DNA of 64,000 nucleotides from Candidatus Latescibacterota bacterium (GTDB lineage: Bacteria; Latescibacterota; UBA2968; GCA-2709665): NCBI GenBank assembly GCA_965219455.1, contig OZ244744.1, positions 736,001 through 800,000 of the forward strand, given 5' to 3'. This document shows positions 1 through 34,339 of the stretch, piece after piece. Position 1 is the first letter of the stretch, and the number at the start of each line of letters is the position of its first letter. Both the position numbers and the translations under genes were made by a program. The notes under the pieces were generated by a model. The model made no database searches, had not been told where the DNA came from, and saw nothing but the letters and a program-made list of their open reading frames with translations.

Positions 1-611
1 GCCTCGCGCCACGGCCTTCTTCCACTTCTGTTTGCCAACGCCAATGAAGAAATATTGCCAGGCAGATAGTAGACATCCGTAATCTCTACTTCATCGCGTT
101 GCTCATCTTCATTACTAATCTCAAAATGAGGTGGGTGACCAGTGACAATTCTGAGAAAATCGCCGACCGCGCGGTTGATTTGGGTCTCATCGACCGTAGC
201 GCTCATCAAATCCTGATCTTTCATCCAGTTTTCAGGACTATCATTTGTGCGAATGAAGAACGCCCGACCCCGCCGTTTGGAGCGATCAACCAATGGCACG
301 TCAGGTCGGCCGGCATCCCCACGCACGGCACCCTTCGGGATTATCAAAACGGCGTCCTGCTCGAATTCTTCTCCGAAACGCTTCATCCTCTGCGTAAACT
401 GGTAGAGGGAACGTGGATCTCCACGCCATCCATTGTTGACCACGAAAAAGAAACGGTCTCGCGTTACCTCACCGCCCTCAAAATAGGATCCGCTTAAAGC
501 CGCCATTTCATAGACACCGGCAGTAAGCTTTACTCGCAGGCTGGCATTCCTTTGAGCGTTTTCCTTCCGGGTGTATTTCCGCCCTTTTGCGTCGCCTTCG
601 TACTTTCGGAA
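1..611 (-). pseudogene. 5'-truncated hypothetical gene running off the window start (not in the ORF track)
   Basis: Minus frame is open from 659 to base 1 and reads FRKYEGDAKGRKYTRKENAQRNASLRVKL...GSYFEGG...FFFVVN...GEEFEQDAVLIIPKG. It recalls an uncharacterised phage/bacterial family (AFR..EN..RN..L; GEEF.QD.VL.IP), from memory. First in-frame ATG is at 506. Confidence 0.6.
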
Positions 612-1029
612 GGGCCTCTCGCGCCTGTGTCGCGAACGTCTCGGGCGATGATCCTTCCTTCATCGGAATCATTCGGTGACGGGATCCCCCGGACATTGCG
701 TAAAATGTGATCTGCGTCGGTATCTTGTGCTCGGTCAGTATAACGGCGTGAGGCTTGAAGGATTGCCGATAGGCCTTGTCGTCCGCCGCAATCTGTTCCG
801 CACGGGTTATCTCGATAGAATCATTGATCACTTCGGCATCCACGTCGAGGCCCCGGGCAAGCTCGACCCGCAGATTCTCGGCCATTTTGACCTGCCCCGC
901 GCATATCTGGTCTAATCTCCGACATCCTTTGGCGATATTGGCATATCCCATACGTCGGGCAAGTTCACCGCGGGTGATAGTGAGATCCTGCGTACGCTTG
1001 CGGATCAACCGCGCCAATGACAGATCCAA
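508..1029 (-). CDS. XRE-like HTH protein, probably C-terminally truncated/chimeric
   Basis: ITRGELARRMGYANIAKGCRRL is HTH-like. The tail after LPKV is an out-of-frame read of the downstream gene. Confidence 0.6.
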   Translation of the reverse strand: MDLSLARLIRKRTQDLTITRGELARRMGYANIAKGCRRLDQICAGQVKMAENLRVELARGLDVDAEVINDSIEITRAEQIAADDKAYRQSFKPHAVILTEHKIPTQITFYAMSGGSRHRMIPMKEGSSPETFATQAREALPKVRRRRKRAEIHPEGKRSKECQPASKAYCRCL

Positions 1030-1451: not shown

Positions 1452-4235
1452 TCAGAACCCGAGTTGCCCGCCGCCCGGCTTTGCGCGGCACTCCTCGGCG
1501 AGTGCACGGCCGATACGTTCGGGGTCCTTGAGAAAATTCAGGATCTTCGCACGTTCGCGCACGTTTGCGAAATCCGCTGGCGTGAGTTTGTCCAATGCGA
1601 GTGTCTCCTGCGGCGCTTCGCAACCGTAGAAGAACCTGAAAGCCCGTTCGATTCGCGGCCGATCCATAAAGAAGAACTCAACGCGAAACAGGAAACGACG
1701 AGCGGCGGCCGGATCGATCGCTTCACGCCGGTTCGTGGTACACGCGAACGGAAGCGGGTGCCGCTCCATCTGGCTGAGTAATTCGTTGACCATGCTCGTC
1801 TCCCACGAGCGAACGGCCTGTTGCCGGTCCATGAGGAGTGAATCGACCTCGTCGAAGACAAGGAATGATTGGGTCTCCACCGCTTCGGAAAACGCCGCGG
1901 CCATCTGCTGCTCTGTCTGTCCGAGCCACTTACTGAGGAGATCCGAAGCCCGCTTGGGCAGCAGATCCATTCCCATCCGTTCGGCAATGTACCCCACATA
2001 AGCTGTTTTGCCCGTTCCGGGCGGGCCATACAGGAATAGCGCGAAACGCCGTGCGTCCATGGCAGCGATCCTCTCGGCCAAATCCTCTAGATCCGCATCC
2101 GCGTGGACCAAGGCCGGTACGTATCGGGAGATCGGCTTGCTGTCGGATGCACTCACACCGTAGCGCAGTTTCGCCTTCTGGGCGATGTTGCGCCGGATGG
2201 TCCCTGCATTCCCATTCGCCATCGCAGCCTGACGCGTGGCCATAGCCAACTGTCTCGGCGTAACTTTCCTGTCGCGCGCCAGGTCCACTGCCAGTTGGCT
2301 CGCTTCGGCCTCCGGAATGCCGTCCTTGCTAAGGATGCCCGTGAATATGCGCTTCCGTGCCACAACGGACATGTGGCGAAACTCGATCGCGTGCATCATC
2401 CGGTCGATGAAAAACGGCAGGAAGATCCGGTAGTAGTCAATGGAGTTACAGGCCCAGATGATCGGAACCGGATTCTCTTCGAGGACCCTGTTCAGCCAAT
2501 GTTTCTCCACGCATTCGAAGTCCTCCATTTCGTCGAAGAAAACCACGACGCCTGGTTCGTGGGCGAGAGCTTCCAGCGCATAGTCGAGTGCCTCCGTGCG
2601 CGATACGGTACGCCGAGACTTCGGACCTACCTCATTGGCGCCAACGGCGTACAAGCGCGCGCCCAACTCGCCACAGAGCGTGCGAGCGAATTCGGTCTTT
2701 CCTGTACCAGGGGGTCCGTACAAGAGGATATTGATTCCCTTCTTCCTGCTGTCTGTTATCGAAGCAAGGGTCTTTCTGGCGTCTTCGGCATCCTTTTCGA
2801 GATACGAGAATGCCTCCCACGGAAGTTCCGCCTGTACCGGCGGTCCCAGCCTCGGTCGTGCGTACTGGGTGGTGATGTTTCGCTCGAGTTGCTCGCAGTA
2901 ACGGTATACGTCGGCTTCCGACCCCCCCACGAGGCGGGTCGTTTCGATGGCCTTTGAGAGGATGCCTGGGGTGCACTCCAGTTCGTCCACGAGTCGACGG
3001 GCGCATACAGAGGCGTCAACACCCTTGATCCCACTCTCAGCCAGTATTCGATGCAAAATGCCGGTCTGACGCGTCGGGCCGTGAGCGGTAAACCTGACGA
3101 CATGCGTAAAACGCCGCATCATACTTTCGTCAAGGTCATCCAGACTGTTCACGGTGTATAACACCGGAACGGAATTTTCCTCAATCAGCCGGTGATTGGC
3201 GAGGCGGGCGCCGCTGCTGGACTCAAGCGTATCCTCAGCCTCGTCGCACAGTATTGCGGCGTCGGACAAGGACCGAAGCAGAGTTTGCGCCATGCGCAGC
3301 CGGTTGCGGTAGTCGGCCCGCCGGTCGTGGGCGGTATTGCACGATTCTTTGTCGAAAATTCCGTAGGAACTCATAGTGAAGAGTCTCATGCCGGCCGCTT
3401 TCGCAACGGTCCTGGCGAATTCGGTTTTTCCGGTGCCCGGCCGGCCAAACAACAAAATGTTCACACCGCGTGCAGGTGCGCCTTCATGCCGCCTGCGCGA
3501 TGTCTCCGAAAGCACTCGGTGAATGTCTTCACGTTCGGATACGTGTGTGAAGTCGTCCAGTCGCAGCCTCGCTCTGCTGGGTTTTCCGACCAGTCGCGCC
3601 GTCAACTCGTCCATGTTTCGTACGGGCGGATGCCACACTTCCCAGAACCACGTATGGATGAGGTCATCGGGGTCATTGCATTCGTTCAGCCGGTGGACCA
3701 TCTCCGGAACTACTATGCCCTTCTCGGCCAGTTCCCGTATGCCCTTGTGGATCTCGCGCCCGTGTCGATTCAGAACTATCTCCCATATGTCCATTGGATA
3801 TGAACACAAACCATCAAGTGTCCTGCATAAATTTTCAACGATGTGGCAATGATTGAAACAGTGCGCAAATTCGAGCAAGGATGCCGCAGAGGCACCCAAT
3901 GAGAATCGTCGGACGACAATTCGTGTGGCGGATTGCTCCGGGCATCTTGGAGGCCGTACGTGTGTGTTTTTTTCAAGGGCAATTACTGCCCGCTTTAGAT
4001 ATCCAATGGCACCCTCTCCGTTATCCTTCTTTCGTACAAGATCGCGGGTAGCCAAGAATTCCAATCGAGCCTCGTCTTGGCTCAACCACTCCAGAAGTGC
4101 GGGCCGGATGCTTCGGTTGTCCAGGGCAACTCGCAACGCATTCCTTGTGTAAATGCGCGCGAGGTACAGTCTGTATTCATTCATGCTCGAATATTTCCAG
4201 TGATCAATCAACAGGCGACGGAGGAATCGGTCCAT
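1452..4235 (-). CDS. AAA+ ATPase with three tandem AAA modules
   Basis: Walker A: GRPGTGKT, GPPGTGKT, GPPGTGKT. Walker B: ILCDE, VFFDE, LVFDE. Arg-finger regions MMRRF, FIDRM, AARRF. GGGAGG RBS; C-terminus ends in LGF. Confidence 0.9.
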   Translation of the reverse strand: MDRFLRRLLIDHWKYSSMNEYRLYLARIYTRNALRVALDNRSIRPALLEWLSQDEARLEFLATRDLVRKKDNGEGAIGYLKRAVIALEKNTHVRPPRCPEQSATRIVVRRFSLGASAASLLEFAHCFNHCHIVENLCRTLDGLCSYPMDIWEIVLNRHGREIHKGIRELAEKGIVVPEMVHRLNECNDPDDLIHTWFWEVWHPPVRNMDELTARLVGKPSRARLRLDDFTHVSEREDIHRVLSETSRRRHEGAPARGVNILLFGRPGTGKTEFARTVAKAAGMRLFTMSSYGIFDKESCNTAHDRRADYRNRLRMAQTLLRSLSDAAILCDEAEDTLESSSGARLANHRLIEENSVPVLYTVNSLDDLDESMMRRFTHVVRFTAHGPTRQTGILHRILAESGIKGVDASVCARRLVDELECTPGILSKAIETTRLVGGSEADVYRYCEQLERNITTQYARPRLGPPVQAELPWEAFSYLEKDAEDARKTLASITDSRKKGINILLYGPPGTGKTEFARTLCGELGARLYAVGANEVGPKSRRTVSRTEALDYALEALAHEPGVVVFFDEMEDFECVEKHWLNRVLEENPVPIIWACNSIDYYRIFLPFFIDRMMHAIEFRHMSVVARKRIFTGILSKDGIPEAEASQLAVDLARDRKVTPRQLAMATRQAAMANGNAGTIRRNIAQKAKLRYGVSASDSKPISRYVPALVHADADLEDLAERIAAMDARRFALFLYGPPGTGKTAYVGYIAERMGMDLLPKRASDLLSKWLGQTEQQMAAAFSEAVETQSFLVFDEVDSLLMDRQQAVRSWETSMVNELLSQMERHPLPFACTTNRREAIDPAAARRFLFRVEFFFMDRPRIERAFRFFYGCEAPQETLALDKLTPADFANVRERAKILNFLKDPERIGRALAEECRAKPGGGQLGF

Positions 4236-4317
4236 AGTCTGTAATACCTCCCGTCGATTACACCCCTGTTCGAATCAGACCGGCAGTTTCTACGAACCAC
4301 CCCGTTTAAACGGATAT

Positions 4318-4351
4318 AAAAAAGAGGCGCATTCACAATTGAACACGCCTC
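4318..4351 (-). terminator. Intrinsic terminator-like hairpin downstream of the WYL gene
   Basis: Minus strand GAGGCGUGUUCA-AUUG-UGAAUGCGCCUC followed by U6; 12-bp stem including G-U pairs. Confidence 0.7.
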
Positions 4352-4364
4352 AAGTTAAACTGCA

Positions 4365-4387
4365 TATACGACGAAACAGGTCGTATA
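4365..4387. promoter_or_regulatory. DriD/WYL-type operator palindrome
   Basis: TATACGAC-GAAACAG-GTCGTATA: perfect 8-bp arms with a 7-bp spacer. Matches the ATACGAC-N7-GTCGTAT site described for Caulobacter DriD and lies next to a WYL gene. Confidence 0.75.
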
Positions 4388-4390
4388 AAA

Positions 4391-5362
4391 TCAGGTTTTC
4401 TTGTAAAAACTCAGATTTTTTTCAATTTCGTCGATAATCTCCTCGCGCAGGGACGCCGGCGCCAGGACTTCCGCGCTGGCGCCGTGGCTGAGAATCCACG
4501 ACTTGATTTCATAGAGACCGCCTGCTTCAAAGGAAAGGATGATCCGGCCGTCGTCGAGTTCCTCGATCTCCTGCGAGGGATGCCATATACGCTGCTTGAT
4601 ATACGGCGCTTGGGATGCCGAGAAGCGGACGCTGACCGCGATGGGAGATTCCAGTACGACACCGAATGCCTGGTGAAGTTGCTCTTCAATATCGGAATCA
4701 ACGAATTCTTTGAAAGACTGGGACGTGACTTCGAGTTCCTGAATCCGCTCAGCGGCCAGAGTCAGGAGATTGTCGTAATTCGGATTTCGGCAGAGGAGAT
4801 ATACGCCATCGTAGTGGTACAAGAATCTGAAGGGCATGATGGAATACGTCTTGCTTTGTCCGGTTGCGATCGCACGGTAGGTCACGTTGCAGATTCGTCG
4901 TTCCGTGATTGCGCGATGCGCATTTTGAAATATCTTTGGCGTGACTTGTGCCTTCTGCCCGCGTATGTGCGGGTGATATGCGGCCTGTTCCAGGAATGCC
5001 CCCATCTTTTCCGGCAGCGTGGCCCGGATCCTGTTCAGCGTTTTCTGAAACTCGTCTTTGAATGGCGTTCCTTCCAGGATGCCGCAGATATAGGTCAGGG
5101 CGATGAGTTCGCCGACGGGGAAGTTCAGCGGCGGCATCTCTTTGTCGTGAATGAGTTTCCACTGGTTCTGGCGCCCCTGCTTTTCCGAATATATCGTGAA
5201 GCCAGCGTCGCCCAGGTTGTCAAGATCTCGCTCTATTGTCCGCCGTGTTACCCCGAATTTTCCTACGAGATCCTGGATTGTCGCTCCATAAGTCCGCGAC
5301 ATGAGTTCTCTTAGTATGTCCAGTTGACGGACGATTTGCCTGGTGTCAGACATGGATGTCAA
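4391..5362 (-). CDS. HTH-WYL-WCX transcriptional regulator (DriD/PafC/BrxR-like)
   Basis: wHTH (GVTRRTIERDLDNLGDAGF), WYL domain (YSIMPFRFLYHYDGVYL..ERIQEL), WCX domain (WHPSQEI..WILSHGASAEVLAP). Alternative start ATG at 5353. Confidence 0.93.
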   Translation of the reverse strand: MTSMSDTRQIVRQLDILRELMSRTYGATIQDLVGKFGVTRRTIERDLDNLGDAGFTIYSEKQGRQNQWKLIHDKEMPPLNFPVGELIALTYICGILEGTPFKDEFQKTLNRIRATLPEKMGAFLEQAAYHPHIRGQKAQVTPKIFQNAHRAITERRICNVTYRAIATGQSKTYSIMPFRFLYHYDGVYLLCRNPNYDNLLTLAAERIQELEVTSQSFKEFVDSDIEEQLHQAFGVVLESPIAVSVRFSASQAPYIKQRIWHPSQEIEELDDGRIILSFEAGGLYEIKSWILSHGASAEVLAPASLREEIIDEIEKNLSFYKKT

Positions 5363-5445
5363 CCTGAGTTGAGGTTAATCGTGGTGGCGTTTTATGCGTG
5401 TGCAATGTTGCCGGGATGCTACCACCCTTAATGGTACCCGCCACG

Positions 5446-5481
5446 AAAAAAAGGCGACCCGATCCCGAATCGCCCTTTTTT
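5446..5481. terminator. Bidirectional intrinsic terminator after dksA
   Basis: A7-GGCGA...TCGCC-C-T6 hairpin. Confidence 0.7.
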
Positions 5482-5500
5482 GATTTCATTTCGCCCCGCC

Positions 5501-5935
5501 TTATAAATCGTCGTCGCTGCTCATCGGCAGGTCCTCGGCGGATATTACTCTCCGTCTTGGCCGGTCGATGATTTGAGGATTTCGTTCGCGTTCCTGCTGA
5601 ACCTGCATGGTATACCGCGCCGTGGGGATGGCTTCCAGCCGGAGTTCGCCGATCAACTCCCCGGACACCTCGCAGATACCGTACGTGCCATTTTCGATCT
5701 TGCCCAGGGCATGGTCGATCTCTGCAAATTCCCGCCTTTCGTTATTGCCCAGGGCAGCCATCAACTCCAGAGCAATCGCGTTTCCCGCCATATCGAACGG
5801 ATCCGCCGAGCGGTCTCTCCTCAGTTCGTTGATATCTGCATCTTCCAGGAGGGTGTGCTTCAACAGGTCCTTTTTTCTATCCAGCAACAGCTTCTTGTAA
5901 AACGCCAGCCTTTCAGGAGTCAGTATCTCAGTCAT
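5501..5935 (-). CDS. dksA: DksA/TraR family RNA polymerase-binding factor (one-cysteine type)
   Basis: DxxDxA tip motif (ADPFDMA) and IDHALGKIENGTYGICEVSGELIGELRLEAIP. Start is probably ATG 5935 or GTG 5941 after GGGGAGG. Confidence 0.88.
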   Translation of the reverse strand: MTEILTPERLAFYKKLLLDRKKDLLKHTLLEDADINELRRDRSADPFDMAGNAIALELMAALGNNERREFAEIDHALGKIENGTYGICEVSGELIGELRLEAIPTARYTMQVQQERERNPQIIDRPRRRVISAEDLPMSSDDDL

Positions 5936-6932: not shown

Positions 6933-7717
6933 CAGGGACGCACCACCGGAACAGGCTGCTCCAGACCGTCAGCCCGGATGTTTTCTCCATTCACCCACCG
7001 GGAGCGATCCGACGCCAGAAACACGACCACGTCCGCGACGTCTTCGGGCGAGCCGAGTCCGCCCATGGGAAATCCGTTCTTCTCGTAAGCGGCGTACGCC
7101 TCCGGTTTTTCTTGACGCAAATTGTCCCACCCGCCCCCTTCAAAGATAATCGATCCCGGTGATACCACGTTCACCCGGATCCGGTCATGCACCAGTTCAA
7201 GCGCCATGGGTTCGGCCATGAAGATCTGGGCGGCCTTGGACGCGCCGTACTGCACCGCGCCGCTCAACTGCGGTATCCATCCGGAGATGGAGGAAATGAA
7301 CACCACCGACCCTCCGCCGCGCGCCCGCATATGAGGGACCGCGAGGCGCGTCAATCGAACCCCCTGGAACACGTTCTTGTCGAAGGTCTCCATCCAATCC
7401 TCGTCGGTCGAATCCATCAGCCTGTCGCCGGATCGGCCGCCCACGTTGTTGATCAGAATATCGATCCCGCCAAGTTGCGCGACCGCTTCGTGCACAAACC
7501 GCTCAGCGTCGTCAGGATTCTGCACGTCGGCCTGAATGGCGGCAACGCGGACACCGAGCGCTCCAATCTGCTCGGACGCCTCTGCGAGCGTCTCCTCACG
7601 CCGTGCGCAGATGGCAATGTCGCACCCTTCCCTGGCCAGACCGATTGCCGTTGCGAGACCGATTCCGCGATTCGCGCCGGTCACAAGCGCGATTTTTCCC
7701 TTCAGATGCATATCCAT
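6929..7717 (-). CDS. SDR family NAD(P)-dependent oxidoreductase
   Basis: TGANRGIG, NNVG, YGASK catalytic motif, VNVVSPG. Confidence 0.95.
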   Translation of the reverse strand: MDMHLKGKIALVTGANRGIGLATAIGLAREGCDIAICARREETLAEASEQIGALGVRVAAIQADVQNPDDAERFVHEAVAQLGGIDILINNVGGRSGDRLMDSTDEDWMETFDKNVFQGVRLTRLAVPHMRARGGGSVVFISSISGWIPQLSGAVQYGASKAAQIFMAEPMALELVHDRIRVNVVSPGSIIFEGGGWDNLRQEKPEAYAAYEKNGFPMGGLGSPEDVADVVVFLASDRSRWVNGENIRADGLEQPVPVVRPW

Positions 7718-7846: not shown

Positions 7847-8038
7847 TCAGCCGTCCACAATTCGCCGGCGACCGCCCTGCAGCCGATCCAGTTCCTCCAG
7901 GCATCGGGGCCTGCGCTTGTTGTGCTGTCTCAAGGCGGCCAGGTACTCTTCCCATTCCCCCTTGCGACCTGAACGGGTGAGTACATCTCTAACTTTGCGC
8001 AGATACGGAACCGCCTCCTGGTACGCCCTGGGCTTTAC
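7847..8038 (-). pseudogene. Diverged duplicate of the 3' end of the SWIM gene
   Basis: VKPRAYQEAVPYLR...GGRRRIVDG* is nearly identical to the C-terminus encoded at 10002-10193; most DNA differences are synonymous. Confidence 0.85.
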
Positions 8039-10001: not shown

Positions 10002-12002
10002 TCAGCCGTCAACAATTCGCCTGCGACCACCCTCAAGCCGGTCCAATTGCTCCAGGCACCGGGGCCTGCGCTTGTTCTGCTGTCTCAAGGCGGCGAGGTA
10101 CTCTTGCCACTCCCCCTCGCGACCTGACCTGGTGAGTACATCTCTGACCTGGCGCAGATATGGAACCGCCTCCTGGTACGCCCTCGGCTTTACCAGTGCG
10201 ATCTGCTGCTCCGCCAATTCCTTCCAGATTGCCACCGCCCGGTCGGGATGAGTCGACGCGATGGCGTCGGCCACCTCGTCGTCGAGGGAGACGTCATACG
10301 TCCAGAACGCACCTCTTGTCCGGCTGGTATGGTCGTACCACTTCACAACCTCATTCGGCTTCTTCTCGGCAATGGCCAGGCGGATCAACTCGTCGACCAT
10401 AGGCGCCTTCTTTTTGCCGGGCGGCGCGGGCATTTCGACTTCCGGAGCGGGCAGGGGCCATTCCATCTCCGGGTCGCTCTTGCGTTTCCTGGTGCTGCGA
10501 GGGCGCAGGCCGGTTTGCAGATAGTGCCGGCCCCACGCCTCGACGCCCTCGCCAACGCCCAGCCCGCGGGCGGCTTTGCACAAAGCCTGAAAATCCTCCG
10601 CGCCGGGTCTGGCGAAAAACTCCTCCGCCTGTATGGCCAGCCCGGCGAGTGGATTGCCGCTGCGCAGGTTGATTGTCTGCAGTTGCTCTCGAAGCGCAGC
10701 GTGCAGGCCTGCAAACCGGTCGGGATTCGCCTCAAGCCCCTGCCTGCACCAGTGCCGCGCTTCGTCCCACGCGCGCTCGGCCATCAGGCGATCCACCAGG
10801 CGATTGTAACTGAAGGTGATGGGGGCTTCGCGCTTGCACAGAGGAATAATCTCGTTCCGCCTGCCAGCCTTTTCCAGGGCGTGAATGAGCCAGTCGGCGA
10901 TCAGATCCCGCTTATAGTCACGCGAAAGCTCATCATCTCGGGGAGGTTGCCCGCGGGCGTCGAGACGCTGCGTTAAGCGGTCACAAACCGCAGACCAATC
11001 GTTTTTCACATAGTCTTTATCCGAGAAGTTTTCCAATCCGTGGTAGCAAAGTTCGTACTCGTCTGCCAGGGCCATGTCCAGGACCCATTCGATCCGGTCC
11101 GCGGGCGACATGGAAGTCGTATCCAGGGTCTCGAAAAGAACGTCGAGACAGGCGCCGATCGCTTCGCTTGACTCTCCCTCGTGCTCGTACTCCAGCGCCC
11201 GGCTGCCCGCGGCCAGTAGTTCCGGTCCCAATCGCACCGCCGCGTCAACCTGTCCGGCCGCCACCAGCGCCTGAAGCATTGCTTTGAGGCGCTCTGTACT
11301 GGCCGATTGGAACCCGTAATCGTCACTATCCCATACGGGTTCTGCCAGGGCTGCGATCTCGGAGCGTATCTTTTTCAGCACTTTGTGCGTCTGCCCCGAC
11401 GTCAGGTTGCGCCTGTCCTCAAGCGACCGGTGCACCTCGTCGTGCGTTTCGGCGAGTTCCAGCAGCAGGTCCACAAGTTCGGCCCGAGTATGCTCCTGCA
11501 GGTACGTACGCAAAGAAGAACTCCGGGATTGCCCGGTCCCGATGCTTTCGGAAAGTGTCTCGCCGGGCTCCTCTTCCAGGTCCTCCCCGTCGAATTCCAG
11601 CGGCTCCTCGGAGGTTTCCGTGATTGCGTCCAACTCCTCAAGCCGCGGGTCGTCTGCCTCAACCGGGCCGACGGCGGTTCCGGCCTTCGCCATCTCCAGA
11701 TATTCAACCACAACGGCCACCGCGTGTTTGCACGTCGTCCAGTAGGGACAGGTACATTCGGATATCAGGTCCTTGCTTCCCTCGATGCTCACCCGGGTGG
11801 CGTAGCGATCACTACCGGACACCCAGGCGACCAGGGCCCCGTCTTCGGCGCGTTTCAATTCCTGGACAGCCCCTTTTCTCGCATAGGACCGACCCCGGGC
11901 AACGATTCGATTGCCGGCCCATTCCTCCAGGTCTTCCCACGTGAGTTCCGAAAAGGGATCAGTGGGCTTTTCGGGTTTGGTCTTCTTCATTCGCGGAGCC
12001 AT
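10002..12002 (-). CDS. SWIM zinc-finger domain protein
   Basis: RGRSYARKGAV..AWVSGSDRY..ECTCPYWTTCKHAVAV (CxC...CxH), followed by a helical repeat region. Confidence 0.9.
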   Translation of the reverse strand: MAPRMKKTKPEKPTDPFSELTWEDLEEWAGNRIVARGRSYARKGAVQELKRAEDGALVAWVSGSDRYATRVSIEGSKDLISECTCPYWTTCKHAVAVVVEYLEMAKAGTAVGPVEADDPRLEELDAITETSEEPLEFDGEDLEEEPGETLSESIGTGQSRSSSLRTYLQEHTRAELVDLLLELAETHDEVHRSLEDRRNLTSGQTHKVLKKIRSEIAALAEPVWDSDDYGFQSASTERLKAMLQALVAAGQVDAAVRLGPELLAAGSRALEYEHEGESSEAIGACLDVLFETLDTTSMSPADRIEWVLDMALADEYELCYHGLENFSDKDYVKNDWSAVCDRLTQRLDARGQPPRDDELSRDYKRDLIADWLIHALEKAGRRNEIIPLCKREAPITFSYNRLVDRLMAERAWDEARHWCRQGLEANPDRFAGLHAALREQLQTINLRSGNPLAGLAIQAEEFFARPGAEDFQALCKAARGLGVGEGVEAWGRHYLQTGLRPRSTRKRKSDPEMEWPLPAPEVEMPAPPGKKKAPMVDELIRLAIAEKKPNEVVKWYDHTSRTRGAFWTYDVSLDDEVADAIASTHPDRAVAIWKELAEQQIALVKPRAYQEAVPYLRQVRDVLTRSGREGEWQEYLAALRQQNKRRPRCLEQLDRLEGGRRRIVDG

Positions 12003-12144
12003 CTCGTTCGGTTACTCCTTTCAAAAAAAGGGACTTATATACTTATCTTGACAGGTTGATAACTGCTGTACTCGGCATTGAAATTTTCCCTCGGCCTACC
12101 TCGCCTTTTGCCCATTACCTTCAACAATATTTCAACATTTCGGC

Positions 12145-12173
12145 TTGACAAGATAAATTCTATCCGGTACTTT
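12145..12173 (+). promoter_or_regulatory. Sigma70-like promoter
   Basis: TTGACA-N17-TACTTT upstream of the small ORF at 12215. Confidence 0.6.
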
Positions 12174-12214
12174 TACGGAGAAGACATCCAATTGACAACC
12201 ACGGGAGTACGCAA

Positions 12215-12454
12215 ATGTACGGAGAAAACACCTCATGGAGTAATGTGCTCAAGATGAATACACCTACTCTTGTTGCACTTGCGGCTATTCTCATCACAAT
12301 GTTCAGTCTCAAAGCTGATATTCATAGTCTCAAAGCCGATATTCGAGAACTAAGACAAGATATCGACCGAAAACTTGAAAGAATAGATGCCCGCCTGGAT
12401 TCCTTCGGAGAACGTATCACCGCAAACAAGACAAGACTCGACACCTTGGATTAA
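12215..12454 (+). CDS. Small membrane-anchored coiled-coil protein
   Basis: GGGAG RBS; hydrophobic segment LVALAAILITMF, then heptads. 21-bp tandem duplication at 12305-12346 (SLKADIH/SLKADIR). Confidence 0.75.
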   Translation: MYGENTSWSNVLKMNTPTLVALAAILITMFSLKADIHSLKADIRELRQDIDRKLERIDARLDSFGERITANKTRLDTLD

Positions 12455-12480
12455 CCCGATCTCCCGTAACACCATCAACA

Positions 12481-12518
12481 GCCTGCCTGAATCCCAAATC
12501 GGCAGGCTTTATTATTCC
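12481..12518 (+). terminator. GCCTGCC/GGCAGGC hairpin terminator
   Basis: GCCTGCC-N13-GGCAGGC-TTTATTATTCC. Confidence 0.65.
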
Positions 12519-12738
12519 TCCTCCCTTCAACTATCCAAGCCTTCAAGGTATGTCCGGTAACCATTGTCCCCCCTATCTACGTTGCTGTCAACGTACTGTC
12601 TCGGAACCCATGCCAACTCCCCCTTGTAATGTTTCAACTTGACAAGGCGTATATTTTCCCTTGACACAGGCCACCGTTAGGTTAGATTTCTACTGTAACT
12701 GGTCACGACCGCAAACCTGATTTAATAAAGATATATAA

Positions 12739-13227
12739 ATGCGTATCCTGAGTTGGCTTCTTGAAATATTGGATACCGTCGCCAAATGGCTTTCATCAAA
12801 AAGCAAAGAAAATGAAAAAAGAGAGTCAATTTGGAGCGTAACTGAAAGTGACAGAAGACGATTCGCGTACTTATCTGTATTCTCATTTTTCCTGTCATTA
12901 ATCGTTGTATCCTATTATGAAATTTGGCACACAAATTTCGGTACGCTACATAAAACAACCCACATCATTCAAAATATCGGAACCATTGGTGTCTCTTGCG
13001 TGACACTCGCATTCTTCTTACTGGAAGGAGTGGAGGTTATGAGCCTGCTATTGGGGAATGCCAGAGAACTGGTTGAACGTAGAAAGGCAGACCGAGAAAG
13101 AAAAGACCTTGAAAAAGCTGTTCAGAAGTTTATTGAAAGAGTGGAAGAAAAATTCGGAACGGAACAACCTGTTTCCATTGAAGATATTAGAAATACCGCA
13201 CAAGAAATAACCTCGCAAGAGCGATAA
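12739..13227 (+). CDS. Hypothetical membrane protein (two TM segments, charged C-terminus)
   Basis: AT-rich ORF with two hydrophobic stretches; TTGACA at 12639 and 12661 upstream. Confidence 0.75.
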   Translation: MRILSWLLEILDTVAKWLSSKSKENEKRESIWSVTESDRRRFAYLSVFSFFLSLIVVSYYEIWHTNFGTLHKTTHIIQNIGTIGVSCVTLAFFLLEGVEVMSLLLGNARELVERRKADRERKDLEKAVQKFIERVEEKFGTEQPVSIEDIRNTAQEITSQER

Positions 13228-13262
13228 GCCCTTTCTCTCATATTCCCTTCAGCATACCTACC

Positions 13263-13299
13263 GCCTGCCAGTATCACTATTGGCAGGCTTTGTTGTTCC
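13263..13299 (+). terminator. GCCTGCC/GGCAGGC hairpin terminator (second copy)
   Basis: GCCTGCC-N12-GGCAGGC-TTTGTTGTTCC. Confidence 0.65.
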
Positions 13300-13512
13300 G
13301 CCTACCGTTCCCTTCCCTTCCTGCTACGCTCCAGAAAGCGCTCTGTGCGCTCCTGTAAGCACGCAGGATCGACTTTCTCGCCCTTCTCCGTGTTCCTTCT
13401 TTGTCCCTAACTCATTGACAAGCTTCTGAATCGTCTCAGTAGTGCTTTTGTCAAACTCCCCCTCCCACACACTGATCGTCTCATCATCTGGAAATGTCCT
13501 CTGCGGGCCTTT

Positions 13513-13741: not shown

Positions 13742-14878
13742 TTACAGACTTGCCGAGAAGGCCCGCAACGTCGACACCTTCTTTATACCGAGAAGTCGGA
13801 AGGACTCGGAAAACGAAGTCCGCCCTCCCAGCGTACTGGTCACCAAGGCGCCACCAAACCGCCGACCTACACGCGCCTTGAGCGTTGGATGGAAACTGCC
13901 GCCACTTTTCCGTTCGATGTTCCTTATTCGATCCAATTCCCGGCCGTAGGCTGACCCAAGCTCTTCACGGTCCAGTGCACCGACGTCGTGAAGCCGGCGA
14001 ATTACGACCAACGTGCTGACTTTGAACTCGCGAGCAAGGCGATTGAGCTGATTTGGTAGTTCCTCGCTCTCACGGTAACGCTCAAGCAAGGACGCAAGTG
14101 GCACAAGAAGCTCGGCGGCGACGCGGTTGCACCAACCCTCTACGTCGTGGACCGGCACGGAAACAGCGTCAACGTCGGAGAGCGCCGACTCACCGAGCCA
14201 GACGTGCGCGAGTTCGTGAGCCAGCGTGAAAATTTGAGCCGCCCTGGTGTCGGCGCCGTTAATGAAGACGAGCGGTGCAAGATCGTCGCTCAGGGCGAAG
14301 CCCCGAAATTCTTCGGGGTCGAGCCTGCGGTGGGTGTTGTTACCAACGATCCCGCTTGTCATAATCAATACGCCCAGCGCATCGGCCTGCTCAATAAAGC
14401 GCCTTAGTGCCTCGGTCCAGGTACGTAGACTGCGCCGCTCCTCGACGTCGAAACCCAGTTCGGCTCTAATCTCTCTCGCAGTCGTCTCAACGTCGTTTCG
14501 CGTTGTAGCGGAACCCACAAACGCCAGCGGATCTTCTCCCTCGATACGTGCAAAGTCGCGGTACCAATCCTGGCGCTGCAAACAGAGATAGACTGTATCC
14601 AACAGTTCCACACTGGGCCGTCCGACGAACTCATTGCCGATCGTTCGCATGTCAGGTATAGGGACCGGTTCATCAAGCGGCTCCGAAAGGAAGAAAGAAC
14701 CGATCGGGGCATGGGTGGCGCGGGCGAGATTCTCCAATTGCTTGAGCGTCGGCTGTCGTTCACCGCTCTCCCACTCAGAATACTTGGGAAATCGCTTTAC
14801 GAGAGCATCTACGGGAATGCCCGCGCGCTCCCGCGCCCAGCGAAATAACTCCGGTTTGACATTGACCCGCAGTGTCAT
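13742..14878 (-). CDS. XRE-HTH plus ImmA/IrrE family metallopeptidase
   Basis: WESGERQPTLKQLENLA HTH; FTLAHELAH (HExxH); EGWCNRVAAELLVP. Start ATG 14878 after AAGGAG. Confidence 0.92.
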   Translation of the reverse strand: MTLRVNVKPELFRWARERAGIPVDALVKRFPKYSEWESGERQPTLKQLENLARATHAPIGSFFLSEPLDEPVPIPDMRTIGNEFVGRPSVELLDTVYLCLQRQDWYRDFARIEGEDPLAFVGSATTRNDVETTAREIRAELGFDVEERRSLRTWTEALRRFIEQADALGVLIMTSGIVGNNTHRRLDPEEFRGFALSDDLAPLVFINGADTRAAQIFTLAHELAHVWLGESALSDVDAVSVPVHDVEGWCNRVAAELLVPLASLLERYRESEELPNQLNRLAREFKVSTLVVIRRLHDVGALDREELGSAYGRELDRIRNIERKSGGSFHPTLKARVGRRFGGALVTSTLGGRTSFSESFRLLGIKKVSTLRAFSASL

Positions 14879-14997
14879 TGGAGACTCCTTAATACCTGAA
14901 TGGCGGCAACACGAACGCCGAGCGACCGGAACGTCGAGAAAACTGTAAGGGCACAACTGCCCCGTTTCATCGAACGACGCCGTGTGGGTTGAATCGC

Positions 14998-17900
14998 TCA
15001 CACGTTATTCTTCTCACCCTCCGGCTCAATGCCAATCCAGCATAGGAGTTCTATATCCTCCAGCTGGATCGGCGGAAGCGGCGCCGGCGGCGAGGTCGGT
15101 TCGAGACCGGTTTCTAGTATTCGGTCGATCACGTAACCGGCGAGCGCCACTCCCGCGTATTCATCAGAATTGAACCAGCCACGAAGCATAATCTCCTCAC
15201 GCCGAGGCCAAGGTGATTCTAGAATGTCCAGGGCACGGTTAATACGTTCGTGAGGCAGATCCGGTGGCTGATTGGCGCGGATGAATTCGGCCACACGATG
15301 ATTTAAGGGCCGAACAGCCGGCTGCAAGTTGGCGGGATCGGTTTCGCGCATCCAACTGGCCAGGATGTCCTGCTGCGCGACTTCCCAGAAATCGTAGACG
15401 CGTTCCTGAAAGTCCTCGGGTTGCCAGAGGGGTGTGTTTTCGTCGCATTCAATGAACCGAAGGCACGTACCAAGCTCGCGGACGATAAAGTCGTGGTCGG
15501 TCCTGGGTTGCCAATCGGCGTCGGCAGATATGAAACGCAGGTATGTACGTTCATACTCTGTTTCTTTTCCAATGACCGCACAGAAGAACACGCCGCGGCG
15601 CGTACTCTTTATCATTCCCGACCCTATCTTCCACGGCAATCGCACAATGCGATCCCTGTTGGCGTCGAGTGCACGTCGCAGAGTTTGCCGATACTCCTCG
15701 CCGGTCTGGGCGGCGCCGGCACTGCCTCCGCGTTCAAAGATGGTCGCATCCTCTCTCATCAATTTCTCAATTTCTTCTCGAGTTTCAGTGAAAACCTGCT
15801 CTCCGTGCGCACCGCCTTCTATTGGGGCTGCGACACCGACACTCGCCGCCGCCATCGCGAGTTTGCCCAGAATGCGTTGTTCAAGATTCAATAACTGATC
15901 GAGGCGGTCAACCGGAAAGATCGTCCGGAGGAATACACGGTCGTGTGGACTACCGATCCGGTCGATACGTCCGTGGCGTTGTACGAGCCGCATCGGATTC
16001 CACGGCATGTCGTAATTGATGATGTGGCGGCACTGCTGCAAGTTAACGCCCTCGGCAAGCACGTCCGTAGCAATCATTACGTCGTAAAGATCTGCATCTT
16101 TACCGGCCGGCGCTTCCATTGATACAGGCGCAAATCCGTGTACCGCGTGCTGGCGAGAAGGCTCGTCCAAATCCCCCGAACCGCTCACAGCGACGATTCG
16201 ATTTTGGTATGGGCCGAGTTCGTGGCACCTGGCGACTTCACACTTCAGATAATCTCTAATCCAAGAGACGGTATCTTCAAAGAAAGAATATATAATAACC
16301 TTGCGCTTCTGCGACTCGTCCACGTCGCTTGAAGCCTCACGCTCTGCCTGTTCAACCACGTCAACGAGCGCGTCCGTCAACGCCCTTAGTTTGGGATCGC
16401 TTTCCGGTGCGATCGCACGCGCATCTTCAGCAAGACTGCGGAGAATGCCCCTGTCGCGCTTCACGGCTTGTCGCAGGCGACCGACATCGTAACGCGACGC
16501 ATCGCTTCGCTCGTCCGTCGCTTCGAGAAGATCCTCAAAAACGGTTTCATCGTCTCCTGAGATCTCTCGCAAAAATGCCGTCGTGACGAAGTATCCGGCA
16601 TCAAGGGAATCGAGAAAGACGTCGTGCTCGTCGGCCATCTTGTCAACAGTTTTACGGAACGCGAACGCCGAGGATTCGAACCGCTTCAGCAAGCCAGAGC
16701 GAAGAAGCCCAACCATCGCGCGAGCACGAGCATCTTCTTCCGCGTCGCCACCATCTCGCAGATAGGCTTCGGGCATATACCTTGCGAATGTGAGAGCACC
16801 TTCTTCATCCGAATCAAGCGCTTCTTCCAATCGGTCAAAAAAACCAGGCATCCTGTCTTCAAGCTCGTATCGGACACTGATCGCTGTGGGATGAGGAAAA
16901 ACGATGGGCTGCGGTCTGCCGTCTGGACCGGAAATGGTGTCTCCTGCGTAGTACTTCTTTACGAATTGGCGAGTCCTTTTCACGGTTGTAGCATCGATGA
17001 TTGGATATAGCACATCGGGGCTAAGGCTGGACGGGTCCGTACGCATTGCTTCTTCAAAGCGTTCCCGAATTGATAGAATGCCCCGGTCAGCAAGATGCGC
17101 GTCCTGACGAAGAAAGAACCGGATGAGATGGTAGAGATCCCAGAGGGAATTGTTGACTGGAGTTGCGGTGAGGAGGAGAAGGTCGCGCTTTTGTCCGAAA
17201 AGCAGCCAGCGCAATGCAGCGGCTCGTGTTGGCGCGTCCGGATTCCGATAATTGTGGGCTTCGTCGACGATGACAAGCTGATATTCTCTCAACGACCGCT
17301 GGAGGTGCTGCTGATCGGCGTTTGGACGGTGTCTATTCCTTAACTGGATATCTCCGGCCAGTTGTTCGAACGAAAGACATTCGACGAAGAGTTGGTAAGT
17401 ATTGATAAATCTTTTCCAGGTCGTGTCGCGCAGCGATGCCGGGCAAATCAACAAGGCGCGTTGGCGCCGTTCCTGATATCGCTGCAGAATCTCGCCGGCG
17501 ATGAAGGTCTTGCCTAAACCCACTTCGTCAGCGACAATGACACCGCCGGTTTCACGCATCAAGCGGAGTGCGCGAGCAACTCCATGTTTCTGAAAACTCG
17601 TCAGGGGGAGATTTTCATCGCTCTCGACATCGTCCTCGACCTCATCACCGTAGAGTTGCCAAAGTACGCGAACGAAAACATCCCACGGTGGTCGCGGTTG
17701 AAACACGACTTCGAACATTCCTACCAGGTCGTAGGGTTCCGCTTCGTCCCACAGTTCATTGAACCAATTCCTGGCTTTAGCGACGATGGGACCATCGAAG
17801 CGACCCAAGTTCAATTCAAGGTTTTGCGTAAGACCCGCTCCGGTCAGGTTGGAAGAACCGGCAATGATTCCCCTCGGTCCGCCAGAGGCTTCATCGGGCG

Positions 17901-18369
17901 ACGAGAAGATATATGCTTTTGCATGCAGAAATGCCTTCTCGTAACGCCTGACTTCCATGTTTCCGGCCCGAAGTGACTGGATGAGCTTGGACAGTGCTGT
18001 GCCGCTTGTTCTATTGAATGGCAGGCGATCGCGGTCTCGCTGCAGGCCCTCCGTCAGGTTTCGCAAGCCTGTCTCAACGCAACGCCTTTTGTACCCGTCT
18101 CGCGTCTCGTCAAGCCGTTTCCGGTATTCCAAAGCGCCCGTAGATAAATCCGCGCCAAGCAACAGGCGCACCTCAGGGATGGAGTGAAGGTGATCCGCGA
18201 TGTGTGCGAATCCGGTCGGACTAAAAAAAGCGGTCGCGATGTTGACTTGATCGGGTGTGCCGGCAGTTTCTGTCTTGCCAATCTCATCCGCAACGCCCAG
18301 CAGTGCCGCTAACGCATTCGCAAGCGTGTTGCCATCACGGTTGTCAATAAACGCGTGTTCCCGGGTCAC
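14998..18369 (-). CDS. PLD-nuclease / SNF2-type helicase fusion
   Basis: PLD motif LHAKAY...GSSNLT...NLELN; helicase motifs ADEVGLGKT, DEAH, LTATPVNN, TDVLAEGVNLQ, QRHGRIDRIG. Confidence 0.92.
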   Translation of the reverse strand: MTREHAFIDNRDGNTLANALAALLGVADEIGKTETAGTPDQVNIATAFFSPTGFAHIADHLHSIPEVRLLLGADLSTGALEYRKRLDETRDGYKRRCVETGLRNLTEGLQRDRDRLPFNRTSGTALSKLIQSLRAGNMEVRRYEKAFLHAKAYIFSSPDEASGGPRGIIAGSSNLTGAGLTQNLELNLGRFDGPIVAKARNWFNELWDEAEPYDLVGMFEVVFQPRPPWDVFVRVLWQLYGDEVEDDVESDENLPLTSFQKHGVARALRLMRETGGVIVADEVGLGKTFIAGEILQRYQERRQRALLICPASLRDTTWKRFINTYQLFVECLSFEQLAGDIQLRNRHRPNADQQHLQRSLREYQLVIVDEAHNYRNPDAPTRAAALRWLLFGQKRDLLLLTATPVNNSLWDLYHLIRFFLRQDAHLADRGILSIRERFEEAMRTDPSSLSPDVLYPIIDATTVKRTRQFVKKYYAGDTISGPDGRPQPIVFPHPTAISVRYELEDRMPGFFDRLEEALDSDEEGALTFARYMPEAYLRDGGDAEEDARARAMVGLLRSGLLKRFESSAFAFRKTVDKMADEHDVFLDSLDAGYFVTTAFLREISGDDETVFEDLLEATDERSDASRYDVGRLRQAVKRDRGILRSLAEDARAIAPESDPKLRALTDALVDVVEQAEREASSDVDESQKRKVIIYSFFEDTVSWIRDYLKCEVARCHELGPYQNRIVAVSGSGDLDEPSRQHAVHGFAPVSMEAPAGKDADLYDVMIATDVLAEGVNLQQCRHIINYDMPWNPMRLVQRHGRIDRIGSPHDRVFLRTIFPVDRLDQLLNLEQRILGKLAMAAASVGVAAPIEGGAHGEQVFTETREEIEKLMREDATIFERGGSAGAAQTGEEYRQTLRRALDANRDRIVRLPWKIGSGMIKSTRRGVFFCAVIGKETEYERTYLRFISADADWQPRTDHDFIVRELGTCLRFIECDENTPLWQPEDFQERVYDFWEVAQQDILASWMRETDPANLQPAVRPLNHRVAEFIRANQPPDLPHERINRALDILESPWPRREEIMLRGWFNSDEYAGVALAGYVIDRILETGLEPTSPPAPLPPIQLEDIELLCWIGIEPEGEKNNV

Positions 18370-18466
18370 AGCAGAGTCTCCAGAAAAAATCCAGCTTTCT
18401 CATCACGTCGCCACATTTCAAGGGGTGTCACACACCCCATGCCGTTCAAATCAACGGTGGATGGCT

Positions 18467-19873
18467 TTATAATTCCGTCGAGGTATTCCCCGTGTCCGCC
18501 AAGAATTCCCGTAACTGCTTCAGTTTTTCCAACAGTTCGTCAAAAGTCACGACTTCAACGTCCTTAGAATTACGGCGGAAGAGCTCGAAGGATTTCCTTT
18601 GATCTTTCTCGGACGGCGTAGTCCCTATTACTAAGCAGCAATTAACCGAATACGATTCAATATCGTCGATGTTGCTATTGTGCTTTATCTGGGCAATTTG
18701 ACTTTGAAATTGATATTTCTGATCAAGAGTCTGTGCGATTGATGCAGAGAGATCATTCGTTGGAGGGTAAACCCCTTCTCGGTACCGATTCTTTCTGATA
18801 AGCTTTGTCTGGGGCTTCTTAATCTCAATGATCGCTGTGTTATCTGTAAGACTGTTTTTAACTAGAAAATCAGCAATCTTGTCCCCTGATCCCGACAACT
18901 TGCGCCCGCCGACGGAAGCCTGATCTTGTACTTTTATTATCGGATAACCGAATACCAAACCTAATATGAACGGATTCTCGTTGAATAGTATTTGCCAGCT
19001 GGATTCACTTGCATTTCGCTTGGCCATTCCTTCATAGCGTTTAATGAATCGTTCTAAGGTAACCAGCTCGATTTCACCTTGAAGCTTTGCCAGTTTCTCC
19101 GGCTTTCCATCTGCAATAGCGCGCGAATTGTGTTCGATTGCTTTAAGCAACGCCTCTTGGTCTTCTTCTTGAAGAGCAGCATTTTCTCCTTGGGCAGCTG
19201 CTGCGAATAACTCGCGCAGTGGATGTCGTCCGCGCTTAATAGGTCGTTCTCGACTTCCAATCGTCTTCGCCACTATGTTGTAGGCAGTATTCTCCTTGAC
19301 AGTAAGCGCGGCATCCTGAGTGTGAGCTGTAATCCTGTTTAGACTTTTTCTAACCTCTTCGAAAACAGCATGTGCAATGGAAATGGTCTTGTCATGCTGT
19401 TTAACACGGGTCGGTATGGATTTTACGATTACGATTTCTTGGCAGTCTGTAAGATCCTCGATAGCTTCCACAAGAAATCTATACTCATATTTAAAGCCCA
19501 ACCCGAGTCGGAAATCTTTCTTAAAGCCGGCGGGCAGATGAGTAAGCAAATGCTGTATCCCATTTTCGGAGATTTCTTCCACGCGAGGCAGTGGAAATCC
19601 ATCTAAACTGATCCTCCTTATCTTTCGGTGCGCCGGCTTAAACTTGCCTAGCTCGCTGCCTGGCGCACGAGTTGGTGTGACGCTAATTGATCCGTCGAGA
19701 TTATTGAATTCCATCAACTTAATAGTAAACTCAGCGCCTTTGCCTTCGCTCGCTGGCTGCTGAAATGGTGGCTCCCGGGGAACATAGAACACCTCAAAGC
19801 ATTCGCAAGACGTCTGCTCTATTACTAGATCCCCAAGCTTGAAGCCTTTCGCCAGTAAATCACGTATTGACAT
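18467..19873 (-). CDS. sduA: Shedu immune nuclease (DUF4263)
   Basis: C-terminal ESSWQILFNENPFIL...ADFL...IIEIKKP...SIAQ...VIG...FELFR...VVTFDELLEK is the SduA signature. Confidence 0.88.
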   Translation of the reverse strand: MSIRDLLAKGFKLGDLVIEQTSCECFEVFYVPREPPFQQPASEGKGAEFTIKLMEFNNLDGSISVTPTRAPGSELGKFKPAHRKIRRISLDGFPLPRVEEISENGIQHLLTHLPAGFKKDFRLGLGFKYEYRFLVEAIEDLTDCQEIVIVKSIPTRVKQHDKTISIAHAVFEEVRKSLNRITAHTQDAALTVKENTAYNIVAKTIGSRERPIKRGRHPLRELFAAAAQGENAALQEEDQEALLKAIEHNSRAIADGKPEKLAKLQGEIELVTLERFIKRYEGMAKRNASESSWQILFNENPFILGLVFGYPIIKVQDQASVGGRKLSGSGDKIADFLVKNSLTDNTAIIEIKKPQTKLIRKNRYREGVYPPTNDLSASIAQTLDQKYQFQSQIAQIKHNSNIDDIESYSVNCCLVIGTTPSEKDQRKSFELFRRNSKDVEVVTFDELLEKLKQLREFLADTGNTSTEL

Positions 19874-27901: not shown

Positions 27902-27920
27902 TGTCGCAAATTGCGACAGT
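27902..27920. repeat. Palindrome TGTCGCAA-A-TTGCGACA(GT), copy 1
   Basis: 19 bp identical to 31702-31720. Confidence 0.8.
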
Positions 27921-27964
27921 AACTTGGCCATACGTGGCGAAATGGGAGGGCACTCTTGTTTTGC

Positions 27965-34310: not shown

Positions 34311-34339
34311 AACCTCCTCCATGATCAGGTTGCGGCCGC

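Follow-up and report, generated by a model that had tools for sequence, protein, structure and literature searches.

The DNA analysed here is a stretch of 64,000 nucleotides (64 kb, hereafter the window) from a Candidatus Latescibacterota bacterium. On its minus strand, a gene encoding a WYL-domain regulator of 320 amino acids (P0002) is followed by a gene encoding an AAA ATPase of 927 amino acids (P0001), and a DriD-type operator box lies between them. The WYL protein is probably a DriD-like activator that, once triggered by a ligand, switches on a Cdc48/Vps4-like unfoldase, and the two genes would form an inducible module. The link between the box, the WYL gene, and the ATPase gene is well supported by the comparison of homologous loci; the binding of the box and the direction of its effect are what we infer from the sequences. 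DriD of Caulobacter crescentus is an activator of an SOS-independent DNA-damage response and is composed of a wHTH (winged helix-turn-helix), a three-helix bundle (3HB), a WYL, and a WCX domain. Together with DdaA, it represents a recently recognised LexA-free response to DNA damage, whose known outputs are a few genes in Caulobacter and Acinetobacter.

The box is a perfect inverted repeat at 4365-4387, made of TATACGAC (4365-4372), GAAACAG (4373-4379), and GTCGTATA (4380-4387). The TGA stop of the WYL gene occupies 4391-4393 on the minus strand, three nucleotides (4388-4390) separate it from the repeat, and another 129 nt separate the repeat from the ATG at 4235 of the ATPase open reading frame (ORF; 1452-4235, minus strand). 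An earlier note on this DNA had placed the palindrome 3 nt past the WYL stop and about 130 nt before the ATPase start; these positions are right, and what the note overlooked is a terminator hairpin between the box and the ATPase gene. The WYL gene likely starts at the ATG at 5353, not at the TTG at 5362 given in the list of ORFs, because this first methionine is invariant in 12 orthologues; it thus spans 4391-5353.

The 21-mer at 4366-4386 matches the DriD consensus, ATACGAC(X)7GTCGTAT (PMC10853764, Introduction), at all 14 specified bases. When up to three mismatches are allowed, the full 16-base pattern has one occurrence in the 64 kb where 0.05 would be expected, and this one site has no mismatch; 5 of 100 shuffles gave any match to the same pattern. 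The bare core CGAC-N7-GTCG is found once against 2.56 expected. Since the core is not rare, it is the complete 16/16 match and the location of the site that make it significant; a box is found at this place in 11 orthologous loci. There is a single box in the 64-kb window, with no second one upstream of the WYL gene, and the full pattern of box plus -10 element occurs twice, the second match being intragenic. A looser core, CGNC-N7-GNCG, was dropped as a measure because it is too common in these GC-rich loci (1.37 per kb; 20 found against 14 expected in the plasmid locus L081), and we used instead the score against the 14-base consensus and the pattern of box plus -10.

The regulator itself resembles DriD. 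Pfam identifies HTH_11 (residues 9-59, E 5e-10), WYL (141-209, 4e-9), and WCX (237-312, 1.5e-21) domains in P0002, in the HTH-WYL-WCX order of DriD. A sequence search of the PDB with P0002 retrieved only DriD chains at E <= 0.01 (9pfq, 8tp8, 7tzv, 7u02, 9cu3), the best being 9pfq_Q and 8tp8_A (best E 1.2e-9), and no structure of BrxR or CapW at this threshold. The recognition helix of P0002 reads V-T-R37-R38-T39-I-E41-R42, so that RRTIER in P0002 is aligned with RRTAER in DriD. The residues of DriD that read bases, Arg37, Glu40, and Arg41 (PMC10853764, section 23), correspond to R38, E41, and R42 in the HMMER alignment with 9pfq_Q and 8tp8_A. Judged by these similarities, P0002 is a distant relative of DriD in which the reading head is kept; its orthologues form a clade of 12 members with 63-91% identity. 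The earlier note had proposed a DriD-type operator, and the 14 matching bases, together with the adjacent WYL protein being closest to DriD and keeping its base readers, bear this out. The DriD consensus and the activation of DriD by single-stranded DNA (ssDNA), both of which it gave as established, are in print (PMC10853764, PMC9186387).

We scanned species-representative genomes with an alignment of 22 homologues and analysed the best 80 of at least 438 confirmed loci. All 80 are from metagenome-assembled genomes; the fractions given below are not a census, and related genomes are not independent events. WYL genes were detected by tblastn (E < 1e-8) with P0002 as the sole query, and distant ones may therefore have been missed. 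The closest loci are from Latescibacterota, with one from Gemmatimonadota. The earlier note expected the motif to recur upstream of homologous AAA genes and WYL and AAA genes to co-occur, and this is what many of the loci display. A strict box with a TAnnnT -10 lies upstream of the ATPase gene in 34 of the 80 and a variant box in a further 7, while a WYL gene is within 2 kb in 42, true DriD orthologues among them. Box and WYL gene are both present in 34 loci; 7 have only the box (some of them at contig ends) and 8 only the WYL gene. Besides the clusters of the ATPase and of the WYL protein, no gene cluster is widely common among the 80 loci.

Two gene orders are found. In 11 loci, the arrangement is that of the window (WYL-box-AAA): a WYL orthologue (62-91% identity) immediately precedes the ATPase gene, both being on one strand. 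In about 30 further loci, mostly with ATPases of two AAA modules, a WYL gene (20-28% identity to P0002) is just downstream of the ATPase gene, often overlapping it or within 50 nt (box-AAA-WYL); these are from Gammaproteobacteria, Alphaproteobacteria, Acidobacteriota, Nitrospirota, Binatia, and others. Because the box precedes the ATPase gene in both orders, it goes with the ATPase gene and not with the WYL gene. The downstream WYL protein of L078 matches DriD chains over its full length (E 3e-57), has the identical helix SRRTAERMRD, and is by sequence a clear DriD orthologue. The "distant lineage" of the earlier note is an understatement, as the module is found in many phyla. Scanning 1.01 Mb of these loci for the 21-mer gave 52 matches of at least 11/14 to the DriD consensus, 23 of which fall in the 2% of the sequence around ATPase starts (binomial P 1e-25). 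At the boxes of two-AAA genes, the start of the first long ORF is 40-55 nt past the box in 25 of 38 and 29-51 nt past it in 32 of 38. The arrangement also occurs in a cultured strain: on plasmid pRsa of Fuscovulum blasticum 28/5 (L081), the box is followed by an "AAA family ATPase" and then by a "WYL domain-containing protein" (RefSeq annotation; genes B6K69_RS17550 and RS17555). After the WYL gene, this plasmid has a second box (7888-7908), with TAACAT at offset 8, before a set of ADP-ribosylglycohydrolase, HEPN, and PD-(D/E)XK genes.

The box and the -10 element have a fixed geometry. TAnnnT lies exactly 8 nt past the 21-mer in all 12 loci of the window type and at 33 of the 38 boxes of two-AAA genes, and no other offset from 0 to 29 has more than two matches. 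In the window, the predicted -10 is TAACTT (4352-4357, minus strand), without a TG extension; there is no -35 hexamer, and its place is taken by the box, whose positions 7-12 read CCTGTT. The plus strand has GTTTTC at offset 8, not TAnnnT, so that the promoter would point solely toward the ATPase gene. According to PMC13004042, the -35 position of DriD-bound promoters is overlapped by the box, which keeps a constant spacing to the -10; no -35 is recognisable in these promoters, and DriD does not activate its own gene. The promoters of didA and CCNA_03891, as given in the Methods of that paper, have CAAGGT and CAATCT at offset 8 when inspected by eye. The window is thus like the described Caulobacter system in the place of the box, in the offset of the -10, in the missing -35, and in a regulator gene that, as driD, has no box of its own upstream (PMC13004042). 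We also considered the conserved TTTAnCTT(T)G as a -7 motif of the Bacteroidetes type TAnnTTTG, and dropped this reading because the same TAnnnT at offset 8 is found in proteobacterial loci. The only match in a scan of 4100-5600 for sigma-70 consensus promoters, TTCACA-18-TAAACT on the plus strand (4332-4361), is at the chance rate and was set aside.

This design, which looks dependent on an activator, is the main reason for preferring activation over repression. The WYL protein could instead be a repressor like BrxR or CapW that blocks the promoter from the box until a signal releases it, which we regard as unlikely. CapW senses ssDNA, and the WYL regulators of defence systems described in PMC11662680 are ssDNA-sensing repressors; a box covering the -35 and the spacer could also obstruct the polymerase, and other loci have genes for nucleases, HEPN, and Fic proteins in the vicinity of the module. 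Yet a repressed promoter must work unaided, and this one has a weak -10, no -35, and no TG extension, in a geometry that equals that of DriD-activated promoters. BrxR and CapW adjoin the genes they control (BREX and CBASS), as the WYL protein does here, but they are repressors at their own promoters upstream of the operon, whereas here the box is 3' of the WYL gene, in activator geometry, with no second box upstream of that gene. Nor was a BrxR or CapW structure among the matches of P0002 at E <= 0.01. The parallel with these two proteins drawn in the earlier note therefore put the emphasis in the wrong place.

The hairpin that separates the box from the ATPase gene is the predicted intrinsic terminator of the WYL gene (4318-4351, minus strand), indicated by a terminator scan, by folding, and by conservation. 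Its stem of 12 bp closes a loop of 4 nt (4351-4324), and T6 comes next (4323-4318); its free energy is -18.5 kcal/mol (z -5.7). Conservation of the hairpin extends over 11 sequences, in which 3 of 10 pairs have changed on both sides. Its first nucleotide, 4351, adjoins the end of the -10 at 4352, and 14-15 nt separate box and hairpin in each of the 12 loci. Bacterial transcription usually starts around 7 nt after the -10. The start driven by the box would accordingly be at about 4344-4346, i.e., 6-8 nt past the -10 and inside the GC-rich 5' arm of the hairpin. RNAs starting at 4347, 4345, or 4343 fold at only -6.5, -1.8, and -0.4 kcal/mol, and their residual stem no longer adjoins the U-tract. 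Transcripts of the WYL gene would terminate at the hairpin, whereas RNA driven by the box would be unable to form the terminator, because it starts within the 5' arm, and would continue into the ATPase gene. The position of the promoter would in this way explain why a terminator stands between the box and the gene.

Taken together, the preferred mechanism would run as follows. The WYL gene would be transcribed from its own promoter and end at its own intrinsic terminator, its transcripts carrying the whole hairpin and stopping there. The product, presumably a dimer as in DriD, would bind the ATACGAC-N7-GTCGTAT box between the stop codon and the terminator, and its WYL/WCX sensor, when loaded with the signal, would recruit RNA polymerase to the -35-less promoter with the -10 TAACTT. 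Transcription would begin in the 5' arm of the hairpin, and the RNA, lacking the terminator, would run into the ATPase gene. The output would be a 927-residue protein with a helical N-terminal domain and three AAA modules competent for ATP, the last with a pore loop of the Vps4/Cdc48 type.

A rather improbable alternative has the transcript of the box start before the hairpin and end there, yielding a tiny RNA or nothing useful, while the leader supplies a separate promoter for the ATPase gene, so that the link between box and gene would be a relic in this lineage. A strong terminator (-18.5 kcal/mol) merely 0-1 nt past the -10 speaks in its favour, and so does the leader, which is long and varies in sequence and length among orthologues. 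From box to ATG, loci of the window type have 113 to approximately 918 nt (measured by hand), against around 45 nt in the two-AAA type, and insertions of approximately 320 nt (L006) and 790 nt (L010) separate the terminator from the gene; a strict unit of promoter and gene would not easily tolerate them. ATPase genes also decay in this clade: that of L001 (6001-8775) has an in-frame stop, and those of L017 and L027 are truncated. On the other side, a start at the usual distance of about 7 nt past the -10 falls at stem positions 6-8, leaving RNA that folds with a strength of no more than -6.5 kcal/mol; all 12 loci, which span 63-91% WYL identity, retain the box, the spacing, the -10, and the order of the genes; and the scan of 4100-5600 for sigma-70-like promoters found none on the minus strand.

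Variation of the box allows its specificity to be compared with that of the regulator. Seven loci (L004-L008, L010, and L017) have GTCATA(C/T) as the right half-site but an unchanged CGAC on the left. The recognition helix in these loci is xRTIQR, whereas in the window, L001-L003, and L016 a helix RRTIER accompanies a box with GTCG(T/C)AT. The change in the helix sits at the position of DriD Glu40, which contacts the outer C of the half-site (PMC10853764, section 23). This joint change amounts to about one evolutionary event rather than seven, i.e., to a single split between two clades. It bears on a further alternative, which we consider very unlikely, that a second DriD-like regulator, from another place in the genome, occupies the box and that the adjacent WYL protein has a different target. 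Cross-talk is conceivable, given that the CGAC-N7-GTCG box is common to DriD, to DdaA as described in PMC13010146, and to a WYL subgroup with the helix VR(S/T)IQRSL, but the adjacent protein has the right base-reading residues, variants of its helix and of the box go together, and the adjacency is kept in 34 loci. It is highly improbable that the palindrome acts as RNA, either as a stem-loop closing the WYL mRNA at its 3' end or as one element of a compound terminator: although it is transcribed with this mRNA and its halves could pair over 8 bp around a 7-nt loop just ahead of the terminator, the change of GTCG to GTCA in the right half at seven loci, uncompensated on the left, breaks the would-be stem and thus argues for a protein site, two-AAA loci have the box upstream of the ATPase gene and outside any 3' end, and a scan of 4100-5600 gave no Rfam match at 4365-4387 with E <= 1. 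The sole Rfam match in that interval, RAGATH-25 (5317-5373), is at chance level (E 0.59).

Besides the variable leader and the insertions, other observations weigh against the DriD-like activation of the ATPase gene. Neither box nor WYL gene was found in 31 of the 80 loci. Among these are every three-AAA locus of Acidobacteriota and, from Latescibacterota genomes that also have a WYL-linked copy, the second copies L009 (alongside L006) and L012 (alongside L007); hence the ATPase family is not tied to this control. The similarity of P0002 to DriD amounts to only 41 bits, compared with 198 bits for the WYL protein of L078. The co-change of helix and box is confounded with phylogeny. The predicted -10, TAACTT, is weak, and this phylum may follow promoter rules of its own. 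The sensor side also differs. The contacts of the DriD WYL domain with ssDNA include Arg178, Tyr192, Lys202, Arg204, and Trp206 (PMC9186387), and of these five alignable positions only Tyr192 is kept in P0002 (in VYL), R178, K202, R204, and W206 being aligned with Y, N, L, and L. The replacements hold across the 12-member clade, at a low identity at which the alignment could be shifted. With four of the five contacts changed, the signal of P0002 may be other than ssDNA.

The ATPase belongs to a family in which many members are full-length proteins of 905-1040 residues and a larger set has approximately 700 residues and two AAA modules. Pfam finds three stretches of PF00004 in P0001, near residues 260, 503, and 734. 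The Walker A lysine, the Walker B Asp-Glu, and the arginine residues of the three modules are conserved in the 22 homologues: K270, D331, E332, R374, and R375 are invariant in the first module (D1, residues ~251-480), whereas in the second (D2, ~490-715) D568, E569, and R612 are invariant and K513 nearly so (at least 90%). The third (D3, ~725-927), a classical AAA module, has the best PF00004 stretch at residues 734-854 and the invariant positions G737, P738, G740, G742, K743, D795, E796, R846, and R847. Its pore loop, S768-K-W-L-G772, is Vps4-like, with G772 invariant; inspection of the sequence by eye revealed no canonical or aromatic pore loop in D1 or D2. D1 and D2 (2091-3485, minus strand) are 30% identical (E 2e-22) and form an old tandem duplicate, D3 with the stop codon occupying 1452-2063. 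The two-AAA protein of L078 aligns best with D2 and D3 (41%, residues 463-920) and secondarily with D1, which indicates that the third module arose by duplication of the first.

The AlphaFold model of the whole protein has a mean predicted local distance difference test (pLDDT) of 80. Its best Foldseek matches in the PDB are p97/Cdc48, Rix7/NVL, and Drg1 (E ~1e-13), with low TM-scores of 0.17-0.19 of the query. The N-terminal domain (residues 1-250; 3486-4235) is all-helical and homologous between the two- and three-module forms. Modelled alone with AF2, it reaches a pLDDT of 88.4 and a predicted TM-score (pTM) of 0.79, and a fold search against the PDB gave no significant match (best E 1.1). 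Pfam family PF22977, "Winged helix domain, variant", matches 8 of 30 aligned N-terminal domains (best E 4.8e-7) but not that of the window, and an Atlas search with the domain led only to PF22977 (score 0.93, rank 3). The likeliest role of the ATPase is to unfold or remodel proteins as a ring, and it would be made only on demand. A complex prediction of the WYL protein with the N-terminal domain scored 0.00 and was used neither way. Between the terminator and the ATG, the leader of the gene (4236-4317) is not conserved in sequence, has GGGAGG approximately 11 nt before the ATG, and has no Rfam family at E <= 1 in the scan of 4100-5600.

Known systems resemble the module in part. With p97/Cdc48, Rix7/NVL, and Drg1/AFG2, its best structural matches, the ATPase shares tandem classical AAA modules, and with Vps4 the type of pore loop (SKWLG, in the last module); it differs in having three modules instead of two and an N-terminal domain without a solved relative. 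The best-named match is IetA/IteA of the anti-phage system IetAS. This identity was rejected, because the scores of 111-114 bits with NCBIfam and PADLOC profiles (110.9 in NCBIfam) are below the NCBIfam cut-off of 510 and concern the AAA cores only; no protease of the IetS type is beside the ATPase gene. The PADLOC matches to IetA, TRIP13, and mad8 reflect generic AAA similarity, and we name no system from them; PADLOC finds no known defence system beside the module in the window. The module differs from the DriD system in its host, which belongs to Latescibacterota instead of Alphaproteobacteria, in having an AAA ATPase as its target, and in a promoter placed inside the terminator of the regulator gene. 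Outside alphaproteobacteria, a parallel is DdaA of Acinetobacter, a DriD-like WYL activator of aciT, recA, and other damage genes, which uses the same CGAC-N7-GTCG box (PMC13010146). The likeness is one of description, and the text of that paper names no ATPase target ("ATPase" and "AAA" are absent from it). "ATPase" is likewise absent from the main texts of PMC9186387 and PMC13004042, and "AAA" from that of PMC9186387. Full-text searches of the literature found no description of the module, with the figures and supplements of the DriD papers (Table S4 of PMC10853764) again outside the search. Relative to this literature, what is new is a DriD-type circuit in new phyla, a conserved AAA output, and the unusual layout of a promoter within a terminator.

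The large AAA+ remodelling ATPase is thus a conserved target that the DriD and DdaA papers do not name in the texts covered. Its gene accompanies the regulator and the box in Proteobacteria, Acidobacteriota, Nitrospirota, and Latescibacterota-like genomes, among other groups; a cultured strain has the combination on at least one plasmid. This raises the question of the role of a damage- or invasion-induced unfoldase in bacteria, and of the use across phyla of one operator code with a -35-less promoter design. A further question is whether nesting a promoter in a terminator serves more generally to insulate a sensor gene that is constitutive from a target that is inducible. Should the altered pocket bind a ligand other than ssDNA, the known range of signals of WYL domains would become wider. 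As a broader and frankly speculative picture, possible though on balance doubtful, the ATPase family, with its helical, winged-helix-like N-terminal domain and two or three AAA modules, could be an ancient, locally encoded output of DriD-family sensors across phyla. It would be a bacterial counterpart of Cdc48/p97 switched on by exposed ssDNA or a related signal, which pulls proteins off damaged or invaded DNA or arms neighbouring nucleases. The Latescibacterota-like lineage would then have gained the third AAA module and the promoter inside the terminator of the sensor gene, and its sensor, with the changed pocket, may respond to another signal.

Other genes accompany the module in some loci. 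In two-AAA loci, the operon contains or adjoins additional genes, for PD-(D/E)XK and Mrr-like nucleases and for DUF2779. Nine loci (L014, L027, L045, L048, L053, L065, L066, L067, and L074) have extra promoters with box and -10, which precede genes for an HNH nuclease, Fic/DOC, an RNase T-like exonuclease, DUF1643, a free-standing N-terminal domain of the ATPase, and unknowns; they may be local islands of a DriD regulon. L069 has a second box (7370-7390), with its -10 at offset 8 and situated between the WYL gene and a phosphatase-fused ADP-ribosylglycohydrolase. A damage response and a conflict system would both be compatible with such neighbours. The WYL subgroup with the helix VR(S/T)IQRSL has an HTH insertion (L038, L045, L047(-), L053(-), and L063) and is also associated with GCGAC-N7-GTCGC boxes; its member in L053 adjoins a DnaB helicase gene. 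The insertion in L010 holds short repeats of the CACAAAAG type. A match in an Azospirillum plasmid (H2) was set aside because the record is without annotation. The Acidobacteriota three-AAA genes of L018-L020, L022, L023, and L030 follow a gene for a peptidase M14 of approximately 900 residues; the M14 peptidase gene of the window (40823-42343) is unlinked to the module.

Around the module, the window has genes for a short-chain dehydrogenase/reductase (SDR), an Nth-like glycosylase, a DksA-like protein, the WYL regulator, the ATPase, and a small HTH-like protein, in this order. The order is identical in L002, L003, and L016, which indicates a stable chromosomal place. The small HTH-like gene (508-1029, minus strand) is conserved 3' of the ATPase gene in L001, L002, L003, and L016, and in L002 it follows that gene by only 50 nt. 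The copy of the window stops aligning with its orthologues past approximately residue 143, as a frameshift would cause. Elsewhere in the window, two repair genes, one for a PolX-type polymerase with a PHP domain (32598-34322) and one for MgsA/RarA (45783-47117), are both without a DriD-type box. A defence island (13742-30837), some 8 kb from the module, is not part of the unit of WYL and ATPase genes. It encodes an M78/IrrE-like peptidase (13742-15001), a 1123-residue protein with PLD and SNF2 helicase domains (14998-18369), Shedu SduA (18467-19873), a 1355-residue enzyme of the Eco57I type (20366-24433), a DDE transposase (25721-27088), and two DndB-like proteins (27965-30837), one with a Swt1-type HEPN domain. 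At the edge of this island, a stretch of low GC content (12000-13500; 0.42 against ~0.55-0.68 around it) contains an ORF of 162 residues without assignment (12739-13227).

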